From Psychrobacter sp. HD31 (GTDB taxonomy: Bacteria; Pseudomonadota; Gammaproteobacteria; Pseudomonadales; Moraxellaceae), in NCBI RefSeq assembly GCF_051097895.1, contig NZ_CP142525.1, positions 1,470,001-1,502,000 on the forward strand: a stretch of DNA of 32,000 nucleotides. Reading direction: 5' to 3'. This document shows positions 4,025 to 19,142 of the stretch, one piece after another; position 1 is the first letter of the stretch, and the number at the start of each line of letters is the position of its first letter. The notes below the pieces were generated by a model. It was not told the origin of the DNA. It saw only the letters and a program-made list of their open reading frames with translations, and did not search any database. Made by a program: the position numbers and the translations under genes.

Positions 4025-4274
4025 CAACACATGACTCCTATATACTGTAACCGTAATGTTTAGTTTAAGCTGATACTCAATAGAAATAAGCTAAATTAGC
4101 ATAACCAAACTAACAATCAATCCACTATTTTAATCCAAAACTAACTAACCCTATTTACGCCACCCTTCACTATCACAGCAGTTTTATTGATAGATTGGTG
4201 ATTTTGATTGAGATACTTTACAATATCTGCGTTTAAACTAATTTTATTATTAAAAATACAATTAAGGTGTAGCT

Positions 4275-5717
4275 ATGCACATTCATATCCTTGGTATTTG
4301 CGGTACATTTATGGGCTCTATGGCACTACTTGCTCGTGACCTAGGGCATACCGTTACGGGCTCTGATGCCAATGTTTATCCTCCCATGTCTACCCAACTA
4401 GAAAACGCAGGGGTAGAGATTATGCAAGGCTACACAGCTGACCACCTTGGCAAAAATGGTAAATACCCTACTCCAGACTTGATTGTTGTTGGCAATGCCA
4501 TGAAACGTGGTATCGAAGCAGTAGAATATATGCTAGATAACGCCATCCCATATATTTCAGGTCCTCAGTTTCTTGCCGAGCATATTCTTCATTCTCGCCA
4601 TGTATTAGCGGTAGCTGGTACGCATGGTAAAACCACAACAACGACCATGCTGGCTTGGACATTGCAGTTTAATGGCATTGACACAGGCTTTTTAATTGGC
4701 GGTGTACCTCTGGTTAATTCGGATGAGCCTCACCTGCAAAAAGCATTTGCTCACAGTAGCTACTTAGGCAAGCCAACAGATGATAATGAATTAAACGGAC
4801 GAGGTTATTTTGTTATCGAAGCAGATGAATACGACTCTGCCTTTTTTGATAAGCGATCTAAATTTGTGCATTACCGCCCAACGACCTCTATTTTAAATAA
4901 TTTAGAGTTTGATCATGCTGATATTTTTGCAGATTTAGATGCCATCCAAACGCAATTTCATCATCTTATCCGTATGATTCCTAGCAATGGCGTCATCATC
5001 ATGCCAAGCGAAACGCAAAGTCTTGAAGATACCATCCAAAAAGGATGTTGGACACCCATTTGGCGAACTACCATCAATAACCATAATGGAAGCGATTGGC
5101 AGGCAGAGTTAATTAAAGATGACGGCACCTGTTTTAAAATTCACTTTACTGATGTAGACGGTAATACCCACACAGGTGAGGTAAATTGGGGTATGAGTGG
5201 TTTGCACAATGTAAACAATGCACTAGTAACCGTTGCTGCTGCCCACAATATTGGTGTAAGCGTTGCTGATGCCTGTACAGCGTTAAGCAACTTTGCGGGT
5301 ATCAAACGTCGTATGGAGTTAATTGGCGATGTCAATGGTATTCAAATTTTTGATGACTTTGCTCACCACCCAACCGCCATTACCACCACACTTGATGGTG
5401 CAAAAAAGAAGTTAGCAGGCAAACGCATTTGGGCAATTATTGAACCACGCAGTAACACCATGAAGATGGGTATCCATCGTGATAGCTTGGCATCAAGCGC
5501 ATCACTGGCTGATGAAGTGATTTGGTATGAACCAGAAAACTTAGCTTGGGGATTAAAAGAGGTGATTGGTGATACGCCACACCAACAAGTACTCACCGCT
5601 ACTCAAGCAATTATTGATTTAATTGTAGAACAGACTCAACCAAATGATGCCATTGTGATTATGTCTAACGGTGGTTTTGAAGGTATTCATAAAAGGTTGG
5701 TTGAAGCGTTACAGTAA
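4275..5717 (+). CDS. mpl: UDP-N-acetylmuramate:L-alanyl-gamma-D-glutamyl-meso-diaminopimelate ligase (murein peptide ligase)
   Basis: The N-terminus MHIHILGICGTFMGSMALLARDLGHTVTGSDANVYPPMSTQLE is nearly identical in pattern to E. coli Mpl. It also has the Mur ligase P-loop AGTHGKTTTT. Confidence 0.9.
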   Translation: MHIHILGICGTFMGSMALLARDLGHTVTGSDANVYPPMSTQLENAGVEIMQGYTADHLGKNGKYPTPDLIVVGNAMKRGIEAVEYMLDNAIPYISGPQFLAEHILHSRHVLAVAGTHGKTTTTTMLAWTLQFNGIDTGFLIGGVPLVNSDEPHLQKAFAHSSYLGKPTDDNELNGRGYFVIEADEYDSAFFDKRSKFVHYRPTTSILNNLEFDHADIFADLDAIQTQFHHLIRMIPSNGVIIMPSETQSLEDTIQKGCWTPIWRTTINNHNGSDWQAELIKDDGTCFKIHFTDVDGNTHTGEVNWGMSGLHNVNNALVTVAAAHNIGVSVADACTALSNFAGIKRRMELIGDVNGIQIFDDFAHHPTAITTTLDGAKKKLAGKRIWAIIEPRSNTMKMGIHRDSLASSASLADEVIWYEPENLAWGLKEVIGDTPHQQVLTATQAIIDLIVEQTQPNDAIVIMSNGGFEGIHKRLVEALQ

Positions 5718-5740
5718 TTTCTACCATTTTATTGAATATA

Positions 5741-5777
5741 AAAAAATGCCTCAAATTTAAATTTTGAGGCATTTTTA
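5741..5777. terminator. Bidirectional intrinsic terminator between convergent mpl and the isochorismatase-family gene
   Basis: The stem tgcctcaaa (5747-5755) / tttgaggca (5763-5771) is flanked by an A-run upstream and a T-run downstream. Confidence 0.75.
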
Positions 5778-5893
5778 ATACACACTCTCACCATCTCATC
5801 GTTGAAAATAAAAATTTCTAAGTGCCTCTACACTTCTCACTTATCTAAATTATTAACCTTTTATTCAAAAAACCAACGACACCTTTGCCAAGG

Positions 5894-6469
5894 TTAAGTG
5901 ACAAGTTTACTAATTGACTTAAATGCTTCATGCTTACTGGTTTTGCACATCTCAAACAAGATCCCTTCAACTGTGGTGATAACTGCCCCAGCATGCCTCA
6001 TACGTTCAATAGCCACTTGCTTATCAAACTCATTACGCGAGCTTACCGCATCAGCAATTAAAATCGGTTGCATACCATTATCTAGCAAATCTAAAGCCGT
6101 TTGTTGCACACAAACATGCGCTTCAATACCACAAAGTATCACATTATTTCGGTTTTGTTTAGCAACATGATTCCATGATACGTCACAATCACAAACGCTA
6201 AATGTTTGTTTTTCAAAAACCCGTTGATTCACCTCGGTGAGTACATCGTTAATAGTGCTTACCGTTTTACCCAGCCCTTGAGGATATTGCTCATTTAGCA
6301 TGACGGGTATGCCCAGCAGCTGCAACCCTTGGGCTAAAATTGCAATTTTTTGGCAGGTTTTATCCATTTGGTGAATGTGCGGTACAAACTTTTCTTGCAC
6401 ATCAATAATCATTGCTTGCGTGTTCTCTTGCAACAAACGGTTTGGCTTATTGGTGTTTATGGTTGGCAT
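5894..6469 (-). CDS. Isochorismatase-family cysteine hydrolase
   Basis: Family hallmarks are AMIIDVQEKF (catalytic Asp region) and VILCGIEAHVCVQQTALDLL (catalytic Cys region). Length is 191 aa. Confidence 0.8.
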   Translation of the reverse strand: MPTINTNKPNRLLQENTQAMIIDVQEKFVPHIHQMDKTCQKIAILAQGLQLLGIPVMLNEQYPQGLGKTVSTINDVLTEVNQRVFEKQTFSVCDCDVSWNHVAKQNRNNVILCGIEAHVCVQQTALDLLDNGMQPILIADAVSSRNEFDKQVAIERMRHAGAVITTVEGILFEMCKTSKHEAFKSISKLVT

Positions 6470-6560
6470 GACTTTCTCCTTGTTTTATTTGGCTACATCC
6501 TTTATTTTTTTATATTTGGCACTGCTACTAAACCTTGTATAAATGTGGTTAAGTTAATCG

Positions 6561-7370
6561 CTAACACCCCTTCCAAACAGGATGGCGCTTTTCAATAAAA
6601 GCATCTATCCCTTCTGCCACATCTTCTGTCATCATATTGCAAGTCATAACCTCACTGGCATAATCATAGGCTGCTGGCAACGGCATTTCTAACTGCTTAT
6701 AAAACATTTGCTTACCCATTCTTACGGCAACGGATGACTTATTCATGATGGTGTCAATCAAATCCTGCAATTTATCGTCTAACAACTCATGGCTGGCAAC
6801 TCGATTTATCAGCCCCTGCTCCAGGGCAGTATTAGCATCTATAAACTCGCCTGTTATCAACATCTCAAATGCTTGCTTACGCGCCATGTTGCGGCTAACT
6901 GCCACCGCAGGGGTAGAGCAAAACAACCCAACATTAATGCCAGAAGTTGCAAACTTAGCCACATCAGAGGCAATGGCTAAGTCGCAAGTTGCCACAAGTT
7001 GACAACCGGCAGCTGTTGCAATGCCCTGCACCTTTGCAATAACAATTTGAGGCATTTGGTTAATGGTTAACATCATATGCCCACATTGTTCAAACAACTT
7101 TTTTTGAAATGCTCTATCAGTATTTGCCCGCATTTCTTTTAAGTTATGCCCTGCACAAAACGCCCTGCCATTTGCTTGCAATACAACCACATGGACGCTT
7201 GTGTCACTGGCAATGTTATCTAGCTCGGCTTGCAAAGCAGATAACATATCAACCGATAATGCATTAAATTGTTTGGGGCGGTTTAAGGTGAGTGTGGTAA
7301 CAATATTACCATTTTGGTAGCTTTTATCTTCTCGAATTACAAAAGCATCATTTAAAGAGTGATTTGTCAT
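6561..7370 (-). CDS. Enoyl-CoA hydratase/isomerase (crotonase) family protein
   Basis: The crotonase fold signature is VVVLQANGRAFCAGHNLKEM...VIAKVQGIATAAGCQLVATCDLAIAS. Length is 269 aa. The gene lies 91 nt upstream of the isochorismatase-family gene on the same strand. Confidence 0.85.
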   Translation of the reverse strand: MTNHSLNDAFVIREDKSYQNGNIVTTLTLNRPKQFNALSVDMLSALQAELDNIASDTSVHVVVLQANGRAFCAGHNLKEMRANTDRAFQKKLFEQCGHMMLTINQMPQIVIAKVQGIATAAGCQLVATCDLAIASDVAKFATSGINVGLFCSTPAVAVSRNMARKQAFEMLITGEFIDANTALEQGLINRVASHELLDDKLQDLIDTIMNKSSVAVRMGKQMFYKQLEMPLPAAYDYASEVMTCNMMTEDVAEGIDAFIEKRHPVWKGC

Positions 7371-7510
7371 ACGTTATCCTTAACGATATGTTTACTAACT
7401 TTTAGTGTCATCTATTTTATAAAAAAACTATCATCCTAATAGTTTATCCCAGTTACTGTTGATAATATATCACAGACTTTAAATAGATAGATATTGATTA
7501 ATAAAGAAGA

Positions 7511-7558
7511 GGCTAGTTAACTTTAACATACCTTAATTTGTGCTAAAGTTAACTAGCC
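7511..7558. repeat. Perfect 14-bp inverted repeat with a 20-nt spacer in the promoter region of the STAND gene
   Basis: ggctagttaacttt (7511-7524) and aaagttaactagcc (7545-7558) are exact reverse complements. The repeat ends 72 nt upstream of the ATG at 7630. Confidence 0.7.
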
Positions 7559-7629
7559 CCCCACCATTTATATTAATATAGATGTTTTGTATCATCAATT
7601 TTACTATTCATTGAAGTTAAAGCCATACC

Positions 7630-9876
7630 ATGACCAATTACAATTTTCAAAACTTACTCTCTCCGCATGAATTTGAGGTTCTAACTAGAGATTTACTACA
7701 AAAGCATTTGAATGTTGGGCTTATCGAATCATTTACCGATGGTGCTGATTGCGGTATTGATTTACGTCATATTTCTGATAACAACAATCAAACTATTATT
7801 CAATGTAAACGCTACAAGAATTATTCTAGTTTAAAAAGCAATCTAAAAACAGAAGTAGTAAAGGTTAAAAAAATAAACCCTTCACGCTATATTTTAGTTA
7901 CCTCAGTTGGCTTAACACCAGAAAACAAAATTAAAATTATTGAATTATTTCAACCATACATTAAAACTACAGAAGATATTTCAGGTAGAAATGACTTAAA
8001 CAACCTCCTTTCCCAGTATAAGGATATTGAACGTCAACACTTTAAACTGTGGTTAGCTAGTACCAATGTGCTAGAAACTATACTCCATCGTGATATTGTG
8101 AATGATAGTGAGTTTTTCCTAGAAGCTATACAAGATAAAGTTAAATTTTATGTGCAAAATGACAGTTTTCCCGAAGCCAGTCAGTTATTAAAAAATGAAA
8201 AATACGTTATTATTTCAGGTATTCCTGGTATTGGTAAAACCACTTTAGCTGAAATGTTAATTCTTGATTTATTAGCTCAAGACTTTCAGTTTGTATATTT
8301 ATCTAATATCAAAAATGCTGCCAAATTCTTTGATAAAGATAAAAAGCAAATATTTTTATATGATGACTTTCTAGGAAGCAACTTTTTAGAAGATTCCTTA
8401 GACAAAAAAGAAGATGACCTAATCATCAAGTTCATTGAAAAAATTCAAAAAACTGATAATAAATATCTAATTTTCACCACAAGAGAATATATTTTACAAC
8501 AGGCACAACAAAAATTTGAAAAGTTAGATAGAGAAGATTTTGTAAAATGTATCATCGATTTATCAAAATATACAAAAAAAGTAAAAGCTGAAATTTTCTA
8601 TAATCACCTGTTTTTTAATTATGTACCTTGGGAATTTGTTCAAGAAATTATGAATCAAGAACTACTTTTCCCAATCATCGAACATCAGAATTATAATCCA
8701 CGAATTATAGAAACTTTTACTAAACAGAAAATATGGGATAAATGCGACAAAGAAGATTTTCCAAGGCAAATAATTCAACTATTTAATAATCCTGTTGCTG
8801 TATGGGAACATGCCTTTGAAAATAATATTACTAATGAATCACGCGTGGTAATGTATGTATTTTTGATAAATAATTTAAACACCTCTTATCATGAACTGTT
8901 TGAAGTTGTTATGAGTTTTTCTGAGAAGTTTTCCAATAAATATAATGTGACATTTAATGATGTACAATTCAAAAAAACAATTAAAGAATTAGAAAATACG
9001 TTTATCAAAACTTATAAATCAAATGAAAAGCGAATTATTGGTTTTCAGAATCCATCTATTCAGGATTTTTTAGTTCATTATGTTGATAAACAAGAGTCTT
9101 TAAAAGAAGATTTGATTAACAATACAATGGATTTAAGTTTACTATTAGGAGCATTCGCTAGAAAAATTGATAATAATAAACGCAAACTAACATTAAACAG
9201 CCATTTATCAAACCTTTTATCTGACAAAATTATTTTAGATTTTGATAAATTGAGATGCTCTAAATCAAGACTCAGTTTCCTTGTTGTTCCAAAAACAGAA
9301 GCTGATTTTATTTTAGAAAAATTGAACTTCATAGCTCTACATCGTAAATTACTGGATTCAGAAAAATTAGAAAATATGTGTATAGAAAAAATGTACCCAT
9401 TTATAAAGAACCCTGATAAAAGTAAATATCAAACCTCAATATACTTTGATTCTATTAATTTATATTTCGATTATTTGGAATATGACTTCAAGTTATTATT
9501 AGATGAATGTATTTATATGGTTGAAGACTATGAAGTTCTAATTCAATTCTCTGATTTTAGAAACATTGACTCAACTGTTTATGATGAGGTCGTTGATAAA
9601 AATGAAGATTTATTCAATGATATTGTTTCAGATATAATTGATGATATATACCAAAGTTCTGATGACATTAACTATGATGAGTCAATTAATTTTCTTCAAG
9701 AAATTACAGATACATTCAATATCTGTACTTATCATGAAAGAGAAAGACTTATAGAAAGATATGAAAGGAGCTATGATGAGCTAGATGATAAGTATAGCCC
9801 TTCTCAACCTAACTCATCTTTGAGTGAAGCTAATGAAAACCATCAAATCATGAGCATGTTTCAGTCATACAAATAA
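7630..9876 (+). CDS. Mrr-like PD-(D/E)xK nuclease fused to a STAND-type P-loop NTPase with a helical C-terminal region (Avs/nSTAND-like candidate defence protein)
   Basis: The N-terminus FEVLTRDLL...DGADCGIDLR...IIQCKRYKN matches the Mrr-type restriction-endonuclease core (D44, Q58-x-K60). Walker A is GIPGIGKTT (nt 8218-8244) and Walker B is IFLYDD (8350-8367). LIFTTRE is an hhhTTR motif as in NB-ARC/STAND NTPases (8476-8484). A GFQNPSIQDFL winged-helix-like motif lies at 9040-9072. The gene is markedly more AT-rich than its neighbours. Confidence 0.75.
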   Translation: MTNYNFQNLLSPHEFEVLTRDLLQKHLNVGLIESFTDGADCGIDLRHISDNNNQTIIQCKRYKNYSSLKSNLKTEVVKVKKINPSRYILVTSVGLTPENKIKIIELFQPYIKTTEDISGRNDLNNLLSQYKDIERQHFKLWLASTNVLETILHRDIVNDSEFFLEAIQDKVKFYVQNDSFPEASQLLKNEKYVIISGIPGIGKTTLAEMLILDLLAQDFQFVYLSNIKNAAKFFDKDKKQIFLYDDFLGSNFLEDSLDKKEDDLIIKFIEKIQKTDNKYLIFTTREYILQQAQQKFEKLDREDFVKCIIDLSKYTKKVKAEIFYNHLFFNYVPWEFVQEIMNQELLFPIIEHQNYNPRIIETFTKQKIWDKCDKEDFPRQIIQLFNNPVAVWEHAFENNITNESRVVMYVFLINNLNTSYHELFEVVMSFSEKFSNKYNVTFNDVQFKKTIKELENTFIKTYKSNEKRIIGFQNPSIQDFLVHYVDKQESLKEDLINNTMDLSLLLGAFARKIDNNKRKLTLNSHLSNLLSDKIILDFDKLRCSKSRLSFLVVPKTEADFILEKLNFIALHRKLLDSEKLENMCIEKMYPFIKNPDKSKYQTSIYFDSINLYFDYLEYDFKLLLDECIYMVEDYEVLIQFSDFRNIDSTVYDEVVDKNEDLFNDIVSDIIDDIYQSSDDINYDESINFLQEITDTFNICTYHERERLIERYERSYDELDDKYSPSQPNSSLSEANENHQIMSMFQSYK

Positions 9877-9912
9877 CAAAAAAACGCCCCTTTTGCAAGA
9901 GGCGTTTTTTAT
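9877..9912. terminator. Bidirectional intrinsic terminator between the STAND gene and convergent fadA
   Basis: The sequence is aaaaaaacgcc-ccttttgcaaga-ggcgtttttt. The GC stem acgcc/ggcgt has inner ctt/aag pairing, with an A-run before it and a T-run after it. Confidence 0.8.
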
Positions 9913-9942: not shown

Positions 9943-11118
<1,176 letters not shown>

Positions 11119-11154
11119 TTATTCCTTAAATTCGTTATTATGTTGTTAGGTTTT

Positions 11155-11192
11155 CCTGCTAACTCTAAAGATATCTCAGGGTTAGCAGGTGA
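11155..11192 (-). other. Intercistronic stem-loop in the 139-nt fadB-fadA spacer
   Basis: cctgctaac (11155-11163) and gttagcagg (11184-11192) are exact reverse complements around a 20-nt loop. No T-run follows on the transcribed strand. Confidence 0.5.
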
Positions 11193-11254
11193 TTCCCGTC
11201 AAGGTTCGACAAACCATATGCGGAAGATCTCAAACCTCATATTGTCATCGTTAA

Positions 11255-13414
11255 TTAAGCTGTTGGGTAGAATGTTTCGCCAGCAGCTGCCATATCACGG
11301 ATTTTTTGTGGTGCTTCATAAGCTTTACCTAGGTGTGCATATTTTTCACACAGTGCTAAGTAATTAGCCACACCAACTTGGTCGATGTAACGGCATGGAC
11401 CACCACGGAACGGTGGGAAGCCAACACCCATAATCATTGCCATGTCTGCTTCTGCAGGTGTAGAAACAATGTTATCTTCTAAACAACGAACCGTTTCATT
11501 ACAGAAAGCTAGCATCATACGTTCAACAATCGCTTCGTCTGTAAACTCTTGCTTGTTGCTGTCTTGGATTGACGCTAAGATGCCATAAGTCGCTTCATCA
11601 ACCAATTTCTTAGGCTTACCTCTGCGGTCTAGCTCATATTTGTAGAAACCAACGCCGTTCTTTTGACCCAAACGCTCGTTTTCAAATAATTGCTGGATAG
11701 CACCTTTGTAGTCAGGCTTCATACGGTCTGGGAAACCTTCTGCCATTACTGCAGAACCATGAACACCCGTATCTAAACCAACCACGTCGATTAGATAAGC
11801 AGGACCCATTGGCCAACCAAATTTAGACATTACTTTATCAACATGAACAAAGTCAGCACCTTGTTTTAGCAATAGGTCAAATGCACCAAAGTATGGGAAC
11901 AACACACGGTTTACCAAGAAGCCTGGGCAGTCATTAACAACCACTGGCACTTTACCCATACGTTCAGCTAATGCAACAGTTGTTGCTACCGCTTCTTCAC
12001 TCGACTTTTCACCACGGATAACTTCAACCAATGGCATACGGTGAACTGGGTTAAAGAAGTGCATACCTACAAAGTTTTCTGGACGCTCTAGCACTTCTGC
12101 TAAATGCGTAATAGAAATTGTAGAGGTGTTAGATGCCAAAATAGCGTCTTCTTTCACCAAACCTTCTACTTCTTTAAGTACGGCATGTTTAACTTTAGGG
12201 TTCTCAACAACCGCTTCAATCACGATGTCTGTTTCGCCAAAGTCACCGTAGTTAAGTGTAGGACGGATACGACCAAGGGTTTGACCCATTTTAGCCGCGT
12301 CAATTTTTTTACGTTTAACTTGTTTAGCAAGTAGTTTAGTCGCTTCGCCCATACCAAGATCAAGTTGCTCAGACTTAATGTCTTTCATGATGATTGGCAA
12401 GCCTCTGCTCGCTGACTGATAAGCAATACCGCCACCCATGATACCAGCACCCAATACAGCCGCTTCGTCAATACCATGTGCTTTGGCACTGTGTACTTTC
12501 GCAAGTTTTTTAACCGTTTGGTCATTTAAGAACAAGCCTACCAAAGCTTCTGCCTGTGGTGTTTTGGCTGCTTTTGCAAAGTTAGTTGCTTCTACTTCTA
12601 GTGCTGCATCACGCTTTAATGGTGCATGTTTTTCGATTGCACCAACTGCTAACGCCACTGCTGGGTACTGTTTTGGATTTGCCTTAGAAAAAATCATGCC
12701 TTTTGCACTATTAAATGCCATGGCTTGTTCAAGCTGATTTAATTTAACAGGCTCAAGTTTTTCTTGACGTTTTGCTTGCCAATCTAGCTCGCCAGCAATA
12801 CATTTTTTAACAACGTTAATTGCTGAAGCTTCTAGCTCATCAGTTGCAACAACAGAATCAACCAAACCAACTTTTAAAGCTGCCGCTGGTTTTTGAGGTT
12901 TACCCGTTGCAATTAACTCTAATGCATTATCAATACCAACAACGCGTGGCGTACGTACACTACCACCAAAACCAGGGAAGATACCTAGCTGAGTTTCTGG
13001 CAAACCAATTTGAGCCTTATCACCCATAACACGGTATTCACACACTAATGTCATTTCACAACCGCCACCAAGTGCTGCACCATTAATAGCTGCCACTTTA
13101 GGGAATGGAAGGTCTTCAAAGCGATTAAATACGCTATTGATTTTTAAAACCCACTCTTTAATGGTGTCTTCTGGTTGTTTAAAGTTTGCAACAAACTCAG
13201 TAATATCTGCACCAGCAATAAATACTTTTTTGCCACTGGTTACAACCAACCCTTTAACATCAGCGGCTTGTTCTAGTGCCGCAACGGCTTCGCCAAACTG
13301 CTTGTTTGTTTCTAAATCAAATTTGTTAACGCTTTCATCTTGTGCGTCGAAGTGCATTTTTGCGATACCGTCTTCTAGCATTGAAACGCTAATGCGGTTT
13401 CCTTGATAAATCAT
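11255..13414 (-). CDS. fadB: Fatty-acid oxidation complex alpha subunit (enoyl-CoA hydratase / 3-hydroxyacyl-CoA dehydrogenase / epimerase)
   Basis: 719 aa. The N-terminal crotonase domain reads [11 protein letters not shown]...GGGCEMTL. The central NAD-binding motif is [14 protein letters not shown]. The FadB-type N-terminus is [10 protein letters not shown]. Confidence 0.95.
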
Positions 13415-14888: not shown

Positions 14889-15233
14889 ATGATGGCAAAA
14901 TCATATACCGACATTACTAAAAATACTGCTGCAAATATGGCAAAACTTCGCAATAATATACCCGAAACACTACAAGGCTTTAGTAATATGGCTGCTGCGG
15001 CAACACAAGACGGAGTGTTAGATAAAAAAACCAAAGAGTTTATCGCACTTGCCATTGCCGTATCACAACGCTGCGATGCCTGTATCGGTTTTCATATAAA
15101 AGCTTTAATTAGACTCGGCGCAACCGAAGAAGAGGTTTCAGAAATATTAGGTATGTGTGTATATATGGGTGGTGGACCTGCATATATGTATGCAGCAGAT
15201 GCACTGGGTGCGTTTCACGAATTTAGTAAGTAG
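14889..15233 (+). CDS. Carboxymuconolactone decarboxylase / AhpD-like family protein (CxxC peroxidase-type core)
   Basis: The AhpD-like motif is SQRCDACIGFH, with KTKEFIALAIAV nearby. I prefer the ATG at 14889, preceded by aaggaag, over the TTG at 14826 used in the ORF track. The TTG would add an implausible Ile/Leu/Tyr-rich leader encoded by AT-rich promoter-like DNA. Confidence 0.8.
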   Translation: MMAKSYTDITKNTAANMAKLRNNIPETLQGFSNMAAAATQDGVLDKKTKEFIALAIAVSQRCDACIGFHIKALIRLGATEEEVSEILGMCVYMGGGPAYMYAADALGAFHEFSK

Positions 15234-15299
15234 CATGAGTAACAGTGCCTTATAAAGACTATCCCTATACAATACTCTCTTCACACACATCAAATGCCA

Positions 15300-15335
15300 T
15301 AAAAAAACGGGTTGGTAATGAACCACCCGTTTTTT
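15300..15335. terminator. Bidirectional intrinsic terminator between the AhpD-like gene and convergent sodB
   Basis: aaaaaaa-cgggttgg-taatgaa-ccacccg-ttttt. The stem has one bulged T. An A-run and a T-run lie on opposite sides. Confidence 0.75.
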
Positions 15336-15359
15336 ACTACAGTTTACAGCTTGTTTGGC

Positions 15360-15986
15360 TTACTTTTCAATACCAGCAGCTTGACCATTGAACTTAGCAT
15401 TTGCATAGTCCCAGTTCACTAGCTTGTCTAAAAAAGTATCAACATAGTTTGGGCGAGCGTTACGATAATCAACATAGTAAGCATGCTCCCATACGTCACA
15501 AGTTAATACCGCAACTTTGCCATGTGCAAGAGGTGTATCTGCATTCGCAGTTTTGATGATAGAAAGCTTGCCGCCTACTTCATCTGCAACTAACCAAGCC
15601 CAGCCAGAACCAAACTGAGTTAAAGCTGCATTTTTAAATTCTTCACGGAAGTTTTCAAAACTGCCAAAATCTTCAGCAATTTTAGCTTGTAAGTCACCCG
15701 TTGCTTCGCCACCGCCATTTGGTGTCATGCAATTCCAATAAAAGGTGTGGTTCCAAACTTGAGCAGCTTGGTTAAACATACCTTGTTTGCTGTCATCTTT
15801 TGCGGTTGCTAGGATGATGTCTTCAAGACCTTTGTCTTCAAAACCTGAACCAGGTAACAGCTCATTTAGCTTAGTAACATAAGCATTGTGGTGTTTACCG
15901 TGGTGATAGTCTAAGGTTTCAGCACTAATGTGAGGTGCTAGTGCATCTTTTGCATAAGGTAATTCTGGTAGCGTAAATTTTGACAT
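15360..15986 (-). CDS. sodB: Iron-type superoxide dismutase
   Basis: LPELPYAKDALAPHISAETLDYHHGKHH, AQVWNHTFYW and DVWEHAYY are the Fe/Mn-SOD signatures. The AQVWNHTFYW context is Fe-type. Confidence 0.9.
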   Translation of the reverse strand: MSKFTLPELPYAKDALAPHISAETLDYHHGKHHNAYVTKLNELLPGSGFEDKGLEDIILATAKDDSKQGMFNQAAQVWNHTFYWNCMTPNGGGEATGDLQAKIAEDFGSFENFREEFKNAALTQFGSGWAWLVADEVGGKLSIIKTANADTPLAHGKVAVLTCDVWEHAYYVDYRNARPNYVDTFLDKLVNWDYANAKFNGQAAGIEK

Positions 15987-16225
15987 AATAGATTCCTTGC
16001 TTACTTATCAGTTGGCTGGGAGTATGGTCTAACGACCTTTTAATATGAGAGCTTATTATGTCATAACTATTAAAGTGGTTACATTATTTTTATGAAAGAT
16101 AACGATTAGTTTTTTTTATTAAAGCGTATTTGTGCTTTTATAAATTTTTTTTATATTCTCAAAATTAATGCGCCAGTTTGCATCAAAATAGAATTTAGGC
16201 ATTACAAATTACTAAAAATTTAGTG

Positions 16226-16534
16226 TTATTTTTTTGCTGGTTTTATCTGGTAAATCACTTTGCCAATTACCTGTGATTTATCCAATTCGCCCATTTGCTC
16301 TGGTGTAATGCTATTAGGGTTATCGCCTTCTAGCCTCATTTTTTGTGGTAATTGTGCATTATTTATTGTTTTAATTCTTTTAATCATTTTTCCATAGTCA
16401 TGATGATTAACTAAAACCACATCCCCCACCTTCAATGTTTGCCAAGGAAAACGAATTGCCACAACAAAAGCATTAGGCAAAAAATTAGGGAACATGCTTT
16501 GCCCCCTAATTTTAAAAATTTTAATCTTTACCAT
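16226..16534 (-). CDS. sodX: Ni-SOD maturation peptidase (S26 signal-peptidase-like)
   Basis: The S26 catalytic-Ser motif GQSMFPNF is present. The 102-aa ORF starts 9 nt after the sodN stop, which is the classic sodN-sodX arrangement. Confidence 0.8.
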   Translation of the reverse strand: MVKIKIFKIRGQSMFPNFLPNAFVVAIRFPWQTLKVGDVVLVNHHDYGKMIKRIKTINNAQLPQKMRLEGDNPNSITPEQMGELDKSQVIGKVIYQIKPAKK

Positions 16535-16543
16535 CAGTAAACA

Positions 16544-17020
16544 TTAACCTAATTTAGGATAAACTGTTTCTACTGCTGGTGGATAAGGACAAACGGCACG
16601 ATAAGTTTCTACACCTTTTGAATCCCAAAAAGTTTCTGCAAACTTGTTAACTAGCTCAACCAGTTTTTCTGCATTTGCCACACTTAAGCTTTGCTTACAA
16701 GCAGAACCAGCAAGCATAATGTTATGTGCTTGTTCATGGATGTCTGAATATTTAGTAAGCAAATCACCTTTAAAATAATCACCCCAAATAATGCGAATCT
16801 CGTGCTTAACCTTTTCAGCATGCACTTCTTTTTCGCTAACTAAACGAGAAAATTTAGCATGGTCTTCTTTATCCTCGCCCAATTCGTCAACCTGCTTACA
16901 AAAACGTAGTACGCTTAATGCATAAATTTGTGCTGGGGTGGTGTCATAAATACCACATGGCACATCACAATGAGCCGAAACAGTTTCTACATCAAATTTG
17001 TTTAATAGTTGGTGTAACAT
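16544..17020 (-). CDS. sodN: Nickel-dependent superoxide dismutase precursor
   Basis: A 16-aa pro-peptide is followed by the Ni-hook HCDVPCGIYD (His17 would become residue 1 after cleavage). Length is 158 aa. A GGGAG Shine-Dalgarno lies 6 nt upstream. Confidence 0.9.
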   Translation of the reverse strand: MLHQLLNKFDVETVSAHCDVPCGIYDTTPAQIYALSVLRFCKQVDELGEDKEDHAKFSRLVSEKEVHAEKVKHEIRIIWGDYFKGDLLTKYSDIHEQAHNIMLAGSACKQSLSVANAEKLVELVNKFAETFWDSKGVETYRAVCPYPPAVETVYPKLG

Positions 17021-17067
17021 AATGAACTCCCTGTTATTTTAAAAAATTATTTGGTTAAATACTAAAA

Positions 17068-17259
17068 TTACTTAGAGATTTTTTTAAACGCTTGATAAGC
17101 TGCCAAGCCTAAAATTGCTAAACCAGCAACCACGCTACCATAAAAAATCACATGATATAGCATAGAAGCATTAGCTGAATGATCATGCCCTGGGTGTGCT
17201 AGCGCTGATACACTGGCGACGGTAGTTGATGCGACAACGGCAAATTTAGAAGTTTTCAT
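17068..17259 (-). CDS. Small secreted/membrane-anchored His-rich protein, first gene of the sodN cluster (function unknown)
   Basis: 63 aa. The signal-peptide-like segment is MKTSKFAVVASTTVASVSALA, followed by HPGHDHS and one C-terminal TM helix (VIFYGSVVAGLAILGLAAY). An AGGGA Shine-Dalgarno lies 6 nt upstream. The gene ends 47 nt before sodN. Confidence 0.5.
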   Translation of the reverse strand: MKTSKFAVVASTTVASVSALAHPGHDHSANASMLYHVIFYGSVVAGLAILGLAAYQAFKKISK

Positions 17260-17706
17260 GATTGTTCCCTATCGTTAGTTTATCTGTTTATTATTGCAAA
17301 TATCACTTTTAAAATGGCTAATCTTGTATCATAAACTTGACTAGCTAACTAGGATTTTAAAGTATACAGGTAAAAATTCAAGTATTTATCTTGCTTATTC
17401 AAAAAAAGTATAATAAAAAATAGTTTTCTAATATATTAATTTTACTAGGGTTTTTAAATCATTAAACTTTCTTTCTATCATAAAAAATACAGTTTTAAGC
17501 TATTTATCTATAACATTTCCTAAACCAACAACATCCGCTCTATATCTATAAATAGAGGCAACAGCAATACGCCACACAACAGTCAAAAAAGGTGTATGAG
17601 CAAGTAACAATTACTAAATACGCAAAGTGAAATTGCTGAACTGTAGAATTAATTTAATCAACACAAGTTAGGCTTTCAGGTTATTACCTCATAATTAATA
17701 AAATAG

Positions 17707-18285
17707 TTATGAGTGCTTTTCAACAACCGCTACAAAAGCGTTGATATACTTTTGTAAAAATTCGCGAGTATTCTCAACATTCATGTTGCCTTCTTCATCA
17801 AATAAAGTTGGAGAATTGCCCAAAAACACCTCTGGCTGAGCCACAAATGGCATATCAAAATATGACAGTGCTAAACGTAAGTTTTTTTGAGAGCTGTATC
17901 CACCCATTTTACCAACCGAGTGACTAATAATACCCGCTGGCTTATTCTTCCATGCAACATCATCATTTGGTTTTGAACAAATATCAACTGCATTTTTTAA
18001 ACAAGCAGGAATCGTGCGGTTGTTTTCTGGTGTCACAAAAAGTATGCCATCAGATGCTTTTATGACTTCACGAAACTCAACATAAGCGTTGGGAAGAGTC
18101 AACTCAGTTTCATTTGGATCATCATAATCAAAATTGTATAGTGGGAGATGACCAATCTCAACAATGTTAACCTCATACCCTTCTGGGAACATTGCCATTA
18201 CATTCTTAGCAGTTTTGCGAGCAAATGAGCCACGGCGCAGGCTGCCGATTAATACACTGATTTTCTTTGACATAAATAGGTTCAT
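17707..18285 (-). CDS. NAD(P)H-dependent FMN reductase family oxidoreductase (ChrR/YieF-like)
   Basis: KISVLIGSLRRGSFARK matches the flavodoxin-like NADPH-FMN reductase N-terminus, and FVTPENNRTIPACLKNAVD is also present. The start may be the second Met (MSKKISV, 12 nt downstream). Confidence 0.8.
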   Translation of the reverse strand: MNLFMSKKISVLIGSLRRGSFARKTAKNVMAMFPEGYEVNIVEIGHLPLYNFDYDDPNETELTLPNAYVEFREVIKASDGILFVTPENNRTIPACLKNAVDICSKPNDDVAWKNKPAGIISHSVGKMGGYSSQKNLRLALSYFDMPFVAQPEVFLGNSPTLFDEEGNMNVENTREFLQKYINAFVAVVEKHS

Positions 18286-18494
18286 CCTTTATTAATGATT
18301 ATTGAAATGTTGAGAGCAAATCAATTGATATTGTAAATCGTTCTCATTATTTTGTACAGATGAGTTTTCTACTTAATGTATTATGCTAATATGTATTGCG
18401 TACATAAAAACAACCTACAAATTTATTAACCTTTTTTTAGATTCAATTGTTATAAAATAATAAATATAAAAACAGGTATAAAGGAAGCATCGTC

Positions 18495-19142
18495 ATGACA
18501 ACCAAGCAGACCCATCACCAACAAAAGATGGTTATCGCCAGTAACAATCAAGGTAAACTTGCTGAACTACAAGATTTATTTAATCAACATGAATTAGGCT
18601 TTCAGCTTATTCCACAAGCACAATTAGATATTGAAGACGCCATTGAAGACGGTTTAAGTTTTGTAGAAAACGCCATTATTAAGGCAAGACATGCCAGCCG
18701 TATTAGTGGATTGCCTGCCATTGCCGACGACTCAGGGTTGTGTGTGCCTGCACTTGGCAATGCACCTGGCATATATTCTGCCCGTTATGCAGGGGTGGAA
18801 GACAAAAAAACACGCGATGCAGCAAATAATGCCAAGCTCATTGAAGCGTTAGCGCCAATACGTGCACAGCAACCCGATACTAAAATAATTGGGCAGTTTG
18901 TGTGTGTACTGGTTATGGTAAGCCATGCAGACGACCCACTACCAATAATTGCTCAAGGTATTTGGCAAGGAGAGATACTACCAACCCCACTGGGCGAAAA
19001 TGGCTTTGGTTATGACCCACTTTTTTGGGTACCAACCCTTGAAAAAGCCAGTGCACAACTAAGTAAAGACGAAAAATCAGAAATTAGCCACCGTGGTATT
19101 GCCAGCCGTGAGCTTATCGCTAAAATTAAGCAGGCATTGTAA
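18495..19142 (+). CDS. rdgB: Non-canonical purine NTP (dITP/XTP) pyrophosphatase
   Basis: The RdgB/HAM1 signatures are ASNNQGKLAEL, FVENAIIKARHA, PAIADDSGLCVPALGNAPGIYSARY, GFGYDPLF and SHRG. The start may be the internal Met (MVIASNN). Confidence 0.9.
   Translation: MTTKQTHHQQKMVIASNNQGKLAELQDLFNQHELGFQLIPQAQLDIEDAIEDGLSFVENAIIKARHASRISGLPAIADDSGLCVPALGNAPGIYSARYAGVEDKKTRDAANNAKLIEALAPIRAQQPDTKIIGQFVCVLVMVSHADDPLPIIAQGIWQGEILPTPLGENGFGYDPLFWVPTLEKASAQLSKDEKSEISHRGIASRELIAKIKQAL

Follow-up and report, generated by a model that had tools for sequence, protein, structure and literature searches.

A lone, horizontally acquired gene of Psychrobacter sp. HD31 encodes an Mrr nuclease-nSTAND3 NTPase protein that is probably an anti-phage sensor-effector

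Introduction

A 32,000-nucleotide stretch of the Psychrobacter sp. HD31 genome (contig NZ_CP142525.1, positions 1,470,001 to 1,502,000 of the forward strand; hereafter, the window) carries a single AT-rich gene between two loci of fatty-acid metabolism, which raises the question of what this gene does and how it came to be there. An original prediction, made from the sequence alone, had described it as a lone, foreign gene encoding a fusion of an Mrr-like nuclease and a STAND NTPase, and had proposed an antiviral role. Our analysis suggests that the product, here called the STAND protein, is an Avs-type, NLR-like (STAND) protein that combines the sensor and the effector of an anti-phage defence in a single chain, that is, an abortive-infection sensor-nuclease, and that its gene was acquired horizontally as a one-gene insertion. 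We give this reading a probability of roughly three in four. All coordinates below are positions in the window, and the + strand is the forward strand of the window.

Several Avs proteins have been characterized in enough detail to serve as points of comparison. Avs1-4 are reported to recognize terminase or portal, after which the nuclease kills the cell (altruistic cell death). In Avs7, ligand-induced release of ADP and binding of ATP lead to a tetramer and to DNA cleavage. Avs5, defined as a SIR2-STAND protein, has been reported to contain an nSTAND3 NTPase. In EfAvs5, the TTR motif is conserved, ATP is held between the nucleotide-binding domain (NBD) and the winged-helix domain (WHD) with the TTR arginine, mutation of Walker A or Walker B or deletion of the sensor abolishes defence, and filament activation is triggered by the non-structural T7 protein gp1.7, a kinase. 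PaAvs5 senses JADA, a non-structural protein of a jumbo phage. In published work, the Avs5-type chassis has been placed together with SAMD9, in a chassis group that includes Avs5 (SIR2), Avs6 (PNP) and Avs9 (AlbA_2). Lee et al. (2026) presented a STAND phylogeny of 589 clades, with Mrr-associated proteins among its seeds and with nSTAND clades marked, and clustered only sensors of at least 400 aa.

Results

The STAND protein joins an intact nuclease to an intact STAND NTPase

The 748-aa open reading frame (ORF) that had been proposed between a crotonase gene and fadBA was confirmed, together with both neighbours, and each of seven motifs was found at the residues originally given for it: FEVLTRDLL at 15-23, GADCGIDLR at 38-46, IIQCKRY at 56-62, GIPGIGKTT at 197-205, IFLYDD at 241-246, LIFTTR at 280-285 and GFQNPSIQDFL at 471-481. 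A chance ORF is ruled out by the matches to Pfam nSTAND3 and Mrr_cat and to the PADLOC family PDC-S73, and by the homologues, of which more than 2,300 were scored and whose family spans several phyla. In the alignment, Met1 of the protein coincides with the start position of 115 homologues, which hardly varies among them.

The residues on which catalysis and nucleotide binding would depend are all in place. The predicted nuclease active site, as read from the sequence, consists of E16, D44 and Q58-x-K60, and the catalytic motif of E. coli Mrr is D...QxK. Within an alignment of 116 sequences, the nuclease domain is invariant at E16, E33, D40, G42, D44, R46, Q58 and K60. The nSTAND3 profile PF20720 is covered completely (positions 1-155 of 155), and the NTPase landmarks comprise Walker A at G197-T205, Walker B at D245/D246 and a TTR sensor at T283-R285; here the invariant residues of the same alignment are G197, P199, G200, I201, G202, K203, D245, D246, T284, R285 and E286. 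The winged-helix region closes with an invariant N474-P-S476-x-x-D479-F480, which follows a beta-hairpin 'wing' at aa 459-472.

An AlphaFold2 model built from the 116-sequence alignment (pLDDT 86, pTM 0.75) has the layout of a STAND protein, with an alpha/beta nuclease, a helical linker, the NBD, a helical domain, a winged helix and then at least 10 helices. When this model was compared with the PDB by Foldseek, the top match was Avs4 bound to portal (8dgf, E=1.9e-8), and further matches were obtained to Avs5 filaments (9nc9 and 9jap, chains of 764-833 aa), SAMD9, NOD2, CED-4 and Apaf-1. Structure prediction followed by a fold search, which had been proposed as a check, has therefore placed Avs4, Avs5 and Apaf-1-type folds among the best PDB matches. 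A profile hidden Markov model (HMM) search, proposed for the same purpose, gave both Mrr_cat and nSTAND3 above their cut-offs and PDC-S73 at full length. The domain order originally read from the translation, a nuclease, a STAND NTPase with a winged-helix end and a helical C terminus, is thus one on which profile HMMs, invariant residues and the AlphaFold model agree.

Other searches with the protein returned less. There was no match above any cut-off in the NCBIfam scan, and a sequence search of the PDB matched the P-loop only. A SIR2 domain is absent according to Pfam (E<=1), the N terminus being Mrr_cat, and the Pfam scan did not detect an N-terminal DNA-binding domain of the Mrr type; the nuclease starts at residue ~10.

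The C-terminal domain is hypervariable and ends in a conserved acidic region

Mean identity to the homologues is 60% in the nuclease and the NBD, 41% in the helical and winged-helix domains, and 20% in the C-terminal domain (aa 486-748), and because identity drops in this way towards the C terminus, we read the C-terminal domain as sensor-like. Matches on plasmids, phages and viral contigs all end at aa ~480-540. A sequence search with the C-terminal domain at E<=1e-3 found 5 proteins among 1.84 billion representatives. Modelled alone, the domain reached a pLDDT of 87, and no PDB match was found for this model at E<=1e-3; its weak likenesses in the PDB were to consensus tetratricopeptide repeats (TPRs), BamD, Tom70 and designed helical repeats. 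A known sensor fold was rejected for this domain on the grounds that no PDB match reached E<=1e-3 and that the sequence search recovered essentially the closest relatives only. The original prediction had noted no obvious TPR periodicity in the C terminus, and a canonical TPR match was indeed not found.

The last ~110 aa (aa 641-748; 9550-9873) contain 27 D/E and 8 K/R residues, for a net charge of -19. In their last 110 aa, 116 homologues average a net charge of -17.8, with 90% of them at -10 or below, despite an identity of ~20%.

The STAND protein is a divergent member of a catalogued candidate defence family

From aa 1 to aa 744, the STAND protein matched positions 1-749 of the 752 in the profile of PADLOC candidate family PDC-S73 (model PDLC05079, E=5.4e-143). 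Full-length relatives are 745-780 aa long and 38-52% identical to it, and they have the same Pfam pair, Mrr_cat and nSTAND3. The named close homologues come mostly from Bacteroidota and are labelled 'restriction endonuclease' or 'nSTAND3 domain-containing NTPase' in NCBI/UniRef. The STAND protein, whose host is a gammaproteobacterium of the Moraxellaceae, is at most 52% identical to any non-conspecific sequence. In architecture, nothing distinguishes it from the family. The STAND protein is thus a divergent new member of PDC-S73, with the same architecture, in a family already catalogued as a defence candidate.

Its remaining PADLOC matches were to two Aga models and mad8 only. Residues 3-156 (7636-8097) matched the N-terminal part of 'Aga_TIR-PNTD1-PNTD2' (E=6e-40) and also that of 'Aga_REase-TIR-PNTD1-PNTD2' (E=1.2e-25). 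Judged from these profile matches, an effector-plus-linker module seems to be common to the STAND protein and another catalogued defence family.

The genomic contexts of homologues point in the same direction. In Aequorivita (L091), the homologue follows a type I restriction-modification (R-M) operon with Fic. In a recurrent metagenomic element resembling an integrative and conjugative element (ICE; L092-L094), the homologue lies between type I R-M genes, an AAA_13 ATPase, a WYL protein and a PLD nuclease, with Lamassu LmuB, a Bil-like ubiquitin system and an ICE marker in the vicinity. Pedobacter sp. KBW01 (L090) carries two paralogues of 771 and 793 aa on opposite strands, ~4 kb apart (10001-12316 and 16497-18878 of that locus), in an island stretch of 22 kb, along with a KAP NTPase, a protein kinase, DUF4238 and GmrSD; the paralogue pair may reflect sensor diversification by duplication. 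A further homologue (L095) is a lone insert adjoining an HNH gene. Dense defence islands were therefore found in 3/4 of the homologue contexts, a small sample without statistics. Mobile carriers of homologues comprised 40 plasmid records (28 of them conjugative), 3 phage records, including Clostridium phage HM T, and 9 IMG/VR contigs. The PADLOC candidate model and the defence-island contexts of homologues agree with the candidate antiviral role that had been proposed, which they support at the level of sequence and gene neighbourhood.

The STAND protein resembles Avs and SAMD9 proteins and is distinct from Avs4 and Avs5

The effector/STAND NTPase/C-terminal sensor-like plan, the defence islands and mobile elements in which homologues are found, and the patchy distribution (in a small sample) are those of Avs proteins in the broad sense. 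Among the named types, Avs5 (EfAvs5 and PaAvs5; AVAST type 5) is like the STAND protein in its tripartite plan, its size of 764-833 aa and its TTR and Walker A/B motifs, and its fold matches (E=2.4e-7 to 1.1e-6; TM-score 0.28-0.35) have the best TM-scores in the list. However, the effector of Avs5 is a SIR2 NADase, whereas that of the STAND protein is an Mrr-type nuclease, and the C-terminal domain alone matched the Avs5 sensor 9nc9_G insignificantly (E=0.37). Membership of Avs5 was rejected on the absence of SIR2, of a sequence match of the family profile or the NTPase module to Avs5 chains in the PDB (at E<=0.01 and at E<=10) and of a PADLOC match to an Avs5 model.

Avs4 (EcAvs4, 8dgf) and Avs3 share with the STAND protein an N-terminal PD-(D/E)xK nuclease, a STAND NTPase and a C-terminal sensor, but Avs4 has ~1,540 aa with a large (~900-aa) portal-binding TPR sensor, and the STAND protein is half that size. 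The two are 13-14% identical (8dgf; TM-score 0.12-0.20), and the STAND protein falls in another Pfam NTPase family, nSTAND3. Size, a C-terminal domain of ~265 aa, NTPase family and identity all disagree with membership of Avs4, which was likewise rejected.

Human SAMD9 (9zjs_B) also matched in fold (E=4.5e-7). SAMD9 and Avs9 have an AlbA_2 nuclease, a length of 1,000-1,600 aa and additional SIR2-like and OB domains, and Avs6 has a PNP effector; unlike the STAND protein, none of these has an Mrr domain. On the basis of the modelled structure, the STAND protein would belong with the SAMD9-like chassis group and would be its Mrr-bearing counterpart. PDC-S73 is not visible among the families named or tested in the main text of Lee et al. 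(2026), namely Avs7, Avs8, Avs10-24 and bNACHT20.

The E. coli Mrr-type type IV enzymes have the Mrr_cat catalytic domain in common with the STAND protein. In contrast to E. coli Mrr, the STAND protein lacks an N-terminal DNA-recognition domain, and its nuclease is followed, in the same polypeptide, by a STAND NTPase and a variable C-terminal domain. Membership of the type IV Mrr family was rejected, as the Pfam scan contained no N-terminal DNA-binding (winged-helix) domain ahead of the nuclease.

The gene was acquired as a one-gene insertion

The composition of the gene sets it apart from its surroundings. G+C content is 27.6% in the ORF (21.9% at third codon positions), as compared to 39.7% in the rest of the window and 40-44% in the neighbouring genes, and the lowest-G+C 2.4-kb stretch of the whole window is the region of this gene. 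Three counts of G+C per 60 nt that accompanied the original prediction (15/60, 12/60 and 28/60) were reproduced exactly.

Two gammaproteobacterial metagenome-assembled genomes (MAGs; L083 and L084) share ~20 kb of collinear sequence with the window, in the order fadB, fadA, a 230-bp spacer, hydratase, isochorismatase and Mpl, and without the STAND gene. This empty site was located through fadA homologues at 93% identity, the hydratase being too distant as an anchor: fadA is 93% identical to that of the two MAGs and ~89% identical to those of Moraxella osloensis and Psychrobacter, and for the hydratase, identity to Psychrobacter orthologues does not exceed 77%. The gene was found at 0/80 Psychrobacter hydratase loci, but these also have no fadA adjacency, so they do not represent an empty site. 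Because the nearest syntenic relatives carry an empty site, the ~2.38 kb can be recognized as a one-gene insertion. The 'lone, foreign' character that had been assigned to the gene is borne out by the empty site, and the comparison of presence and absence at the crotonase-fadA junction, which had been suggested as a check, yielded a patchy pattern with empty sites in the nearest relatives.

The boundaries of the insertion could be placed closely. On the fadA side, alignment to both empty-site relatives reaches 9878, 2 nt past the stop codon. On the hydratase side, homology to them stops at 7494 and weak similarity continues to ~7510, so the left edge lies between 7495 and ~7510. Between these limits are a hairpin, a promoter-like site and the single ORF. 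The hairpin of the fadA terminator starts 3 nt past the stop codon of the STAND gene, and both empty sites contain this hairpin as well; since homology with the empty sites stops 2 nt past the stop codon, this terminator is taken as ancestral. It probably ends transcription of both convergent genes, STAND and fadA, its use on the + strand being suggested by the T-run that follows the hairpin.

Neither terminal inverted repeats nor a target-site duplication, a transposase or an integrase was found in the insert. A transposon, an insertion sequence element and an integron cassette were rejected as the vehicle, given the single ORF, the lack of terminal repeats or duplication and the unique hairpin at the edge. 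This left-edge hairpin (7511-7558) occurs once in the window, is missing from the empty site and recurs in both other samples that carry the insertion (L001 and L082), and scans of JGI metagenomes and IMG/VR contained no exact copy of it. The 135-nt leader with the inverted repeat folds at z = -4.7, and on the - strand, a T-rich run follows the hairpin. The hairpin might serve as an insulator or terminator of antisense transcription, might be an operator, or might be left over from the donor context. The sites termed attC are typically longer than 48 bp, and the GTTAAC core of the hairpin was rejected as an attC core site on account of its 48-bp span, its near-perfect stem and the lack of an integrase and of a cassette array.

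By direct inspection of the sequence from 7600 to 7629, a clear Shine-Dalgarno sequence is absent ahead of the ATG (…GAAGTTAAAGCCATACC ATG). A donor resembling Bacteroidota would be in keeping with this absence, with the low G+C content and with the taxa to which the nearest named homologues belong, the closest homologue being only ~52% identical.

Strain comparison suggests recent spread of the gene

The insertion is carried by two further samples, L082 and L001, so that three samples of the lineage are available in total; exact-protein look-ups of the neighbours recovered only the same insertion. In all three samples the STAND ORF is intact, and it differs by 1-2 nucleotides. Between L082 and the window, identity is 99.99%. 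L001 nearly matches the window along a tract made up of the first (5') third of the hydratase gene, the spacer and the complete STAND gene, whereas the flank at 4066-7008 contains 81 differences in 2,943 bp (2.75%; Fisher p = 6e-22 against the tract). Divergence from L001 restarts at 9880, 3-4 nt past the stop codon, which is the insertion junction. This pattern of differences suggests a recent passage of the gene from strain to strain, through recombination in which one crossover fell within the hydratase gene, or a recent sweep, a reading that is limited by L001 being a metagenome-style contig that ends ~100 bp past the junction and could be a chimeric assembly.

Features of the locus and other differences within the window

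To the left of the STAND gene are genes for an Mpl-type ligase, an isochorismatase-family protein and an enoyl-CoA hydratase (6561-7370, - strand), and to its right are fadA and fadB (9943-13414, - strand). The coordinates of the features of the locus are given in Table 1.

Table 1. Features of the STAND gene and its insertion in the window.
Feature	Position	Strand	Details
ORF for Mrr nuclease / nSTAND3 NTPase / helical C-terminal domain	7630..9876	+	748 aa; ATG start; PADLOC PDC-S73 family
Mrr-type PD-(D/E)xK nuclease domain, aa 10-98	7657..7923	+	Pfam Mrr_cat, E=4.1e-7; 30.6 bits, cut-off 21
nSTAND3 NBD, aa 174-329	8149..8616	+	Pfam PF20720, E=2.2e-53; 180.5 bits, cut-off 27.2
Helical and winged-helix domains, aa 330-485	8617..9084	+	AlphaFold secondary structure, invariant columns and fold matches
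C-terminal all-alpha helical-repeat domain, aa 486-748	9085..9873	+	Presumed sensor; hypervariable sequence; last ~110 aa acidic
Inserted segment, ~2.38 kb (2,383 bp)	7495..9877		Replaces ~43 bp of the ancestral fadA-hydratase spacer; G+C 27.7% vs 39.7%
Stable inverted repeat at left insert edge	7511..7558		15 perfect bp; 18-nt arms at 94%; 12-nt loop
Candidate sigma-70-like promoter (TTTATA, 17 nt, TATCAT)	7567..7595	+	Consensus scan only, 9/12 matches; ends 35 nt before the ATG
fadA intrinsic terminator, ancestral	9879..9910		G+C-rich hairpin between an A-run and a T-run; called on the - strand by terminator scan
Near-identical tract vs L001 (~98% strain, Logan SRR33677536)	7009..9879		2 differences in 2,871 bp

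Two more stretches of the window, 15226-16238 and 17284-18536, have no counterpart in L083, and neither contains a PADLOC match. The former holds an Fe/Mn superoxide dismutase gene (15360-15986), which adjoins that of a Ni superoxide dismutase at 16544-17020, and the latter holds a gene for an NADPH-dependent FMN reductase (17707-18285); as these are the products, both stretches were rejected as defence genes. Small structural differences from the relatives occur at 943-1057, 4028-4065 and 5717-5893. At 4028-4065, where the window has 38 bp, L001 has ~470 bp. L083 has a 380-aa gene of unknown function in place of ~113 bp of the window and, between its isochorismatase and Mpl genes, a mini-gene for DUF1653. 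Hydratases 63-70% identical to that of the window were found in contigs filed under Caldilineaceae, Accumulibacter, Spirochaetia, Meiothermus and Udaeobacter MAGs (L065, L073, L074, L078 and L079), which are probably mis-binned Moraxellaceae-like contigs.

Discussion

By analogy with the characterized Avs proteins, the STAND protein could be expected to work as follows. In the uninfected cell, it would be a closed, nucleotide-bound monomer with an inactive nuclease. Upon infection, the C-terminal domain would bind a phage-derived cue, most likely a phage protein, and the NTPase switch would be released, with ATP binding then driving oligomerization through contacts of the NBD and the winged helix. 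The oligomer might be a tetramer, as in Avs3, Avs4 and Avs7, or a filament, as in Avs5. The Mrr domains would thereby be brought together into active nuclease units that may cut double-stranded DNA without sequence specificity, and the infected cell would be killed or arrested before phage release, that is, by abortive infection.

Several observations weigh against this reading. Defence, DNA cleavage, oligomerization and the trigger are all elements that we infer by analogy, and in the searchable literature, no paper mentions PDC-S73 or tests an Mrr-nSTAND3 protein. To that extent the family is the uncharacterized one that the original prediction had envisaged, but the idea of an unusually compact clade apart was overstated, as the NTPase is of the Avs5 type, the size is Avs5-like, and a PADLOC model and NCBI/UniRef names already exist. 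The locus of the STAND gene in the window is not in a defence island. Global TM-scores of the full-length model are low (0.19-0.35), though this is expected for multi-domain proteins in different states. When the family profile and the NTPase module were searched against the PDB, no solved Avs protein was found by sequence even at E<=10, with P-loop matches only, and since there is no match at the sequence level, the relation to Avs4 and Avs5 is confined to fold, architecture and a shared Pfam family. Finally, the C-terminal domain, at ~265 aa, is much smaller than the typical Avs sensor, which has at least 400 aa in Lee et al. (2026). Given this small size and the lack of a significant structural match, it is less certain that the domain would directly envelop the fold of a phage protein.

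The last of these points leads to the alternatives, the first of which accepts an Avs-like sensor-nuclease and differs in how it is switched. In this alternative, the short acidic C-terminal domain would be a DNA-mimicking autoinhibitor of the Mrr nuclease, a bait for basic nucleic-acid-binding phage proteins or the guard of a host factor, and activation would occur by displacement of the tail, not by recognition of a fold or by wrapping of a phage structural protein. The strongly negative charge of the last 110 aa, kept across homologues that share so little sequence there, is consistent with such a role, as are the size of the domain (<400 aa), its lack of a significant PDB relative and the non-structural nature of the Avs5 triggers, T7 gp1.7 kinase and JADA. 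Acidic helical tails can, however, be mere solubility or linker features, and we regard this alternative as possible but unlikely. A more specific version is that PDC-S73 is a distinct 'short-sensor' class on the Avs5/SAMD9-type chassis, whose acidic tail is a DNA mimic that plugs the Mrr nuclease until a basic nucleic-acid-binding phage protein displaces it, the tail serving as a decoy or bait in place of fold envelopment. This is speculative and seems to us doubtful. A short-sensor mode of this kind would have escaped the sensor clustering published in 2026, because sensors of <400 aa were excluded there.

Two other alternatives dispense with the sensor-effector. The protein could be a type IV modification-dependent restriction enzyme, with an Mrr domain that cuts modified phage DNA directly and an NTPase that is regulatory or translocating. 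The Mrr_cat domain itself, the annotation of many homologues as 'restriction endonuclease' and the position of some of them beside R-M systems or GmrSD would accord with this. Yet those names were assigned automatically in the databases, on the strength of the Mrr_cat match, the N-terminal DNA-binding domain of Mrr-type enzymes was not detected, and the NTPase is a STAND switch (TTR, winged helix) with a fold like that of NLR and Avs proteins, not of McrB- or helicase-type motors. The hypervariable C-terminal domain, moreover, fits a sensor in an arms race. We rate a type IV enzyme as very unlikely. It is also conceivable that the gene is a non-functional or non-defensive passenger, either a recently transferred gene without a role or a selfish or toxic element kept by its own mobility. 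It is a lone gene outside a defence island, with an extremely foreign composition and no strong Shine-Dalgarno sequence, and only three samples of the lineage represent it. Those three samples are independent, however, and in each of them the ORF has remained intact. All catalytic and NTPase residues have been kept, the gene has its own promoter-like site and uses a terminator, and the family is large and conserved at full length across phyla. We consider a passenger highly improbable, and an Avs-type sensor-effector remains the reading that we favour.

At the level of the locus, the window offers a clean natural case of gene acquisition, in which ~2.4 kb consisting of a hairpin, a candidate promoter and an ORF are bounded precisely by a terminator and a promoter of the host. 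The finding leaves current concepts unchanged, as the architecture, the NTPase family and the status as a defence candidate were already catalogued. For the family, PDC-S73 would represent a large, multi-phylum branch of bacterial NLR-like immunity in which an Avs5/SAMD9-type NTPase is combined with a nuclease effector. Its trigger, if found, would extend the map of bacterial NLR-like sensing and would reveal whether short acidic sensors operate in another way than the large TPR sensors known to date.

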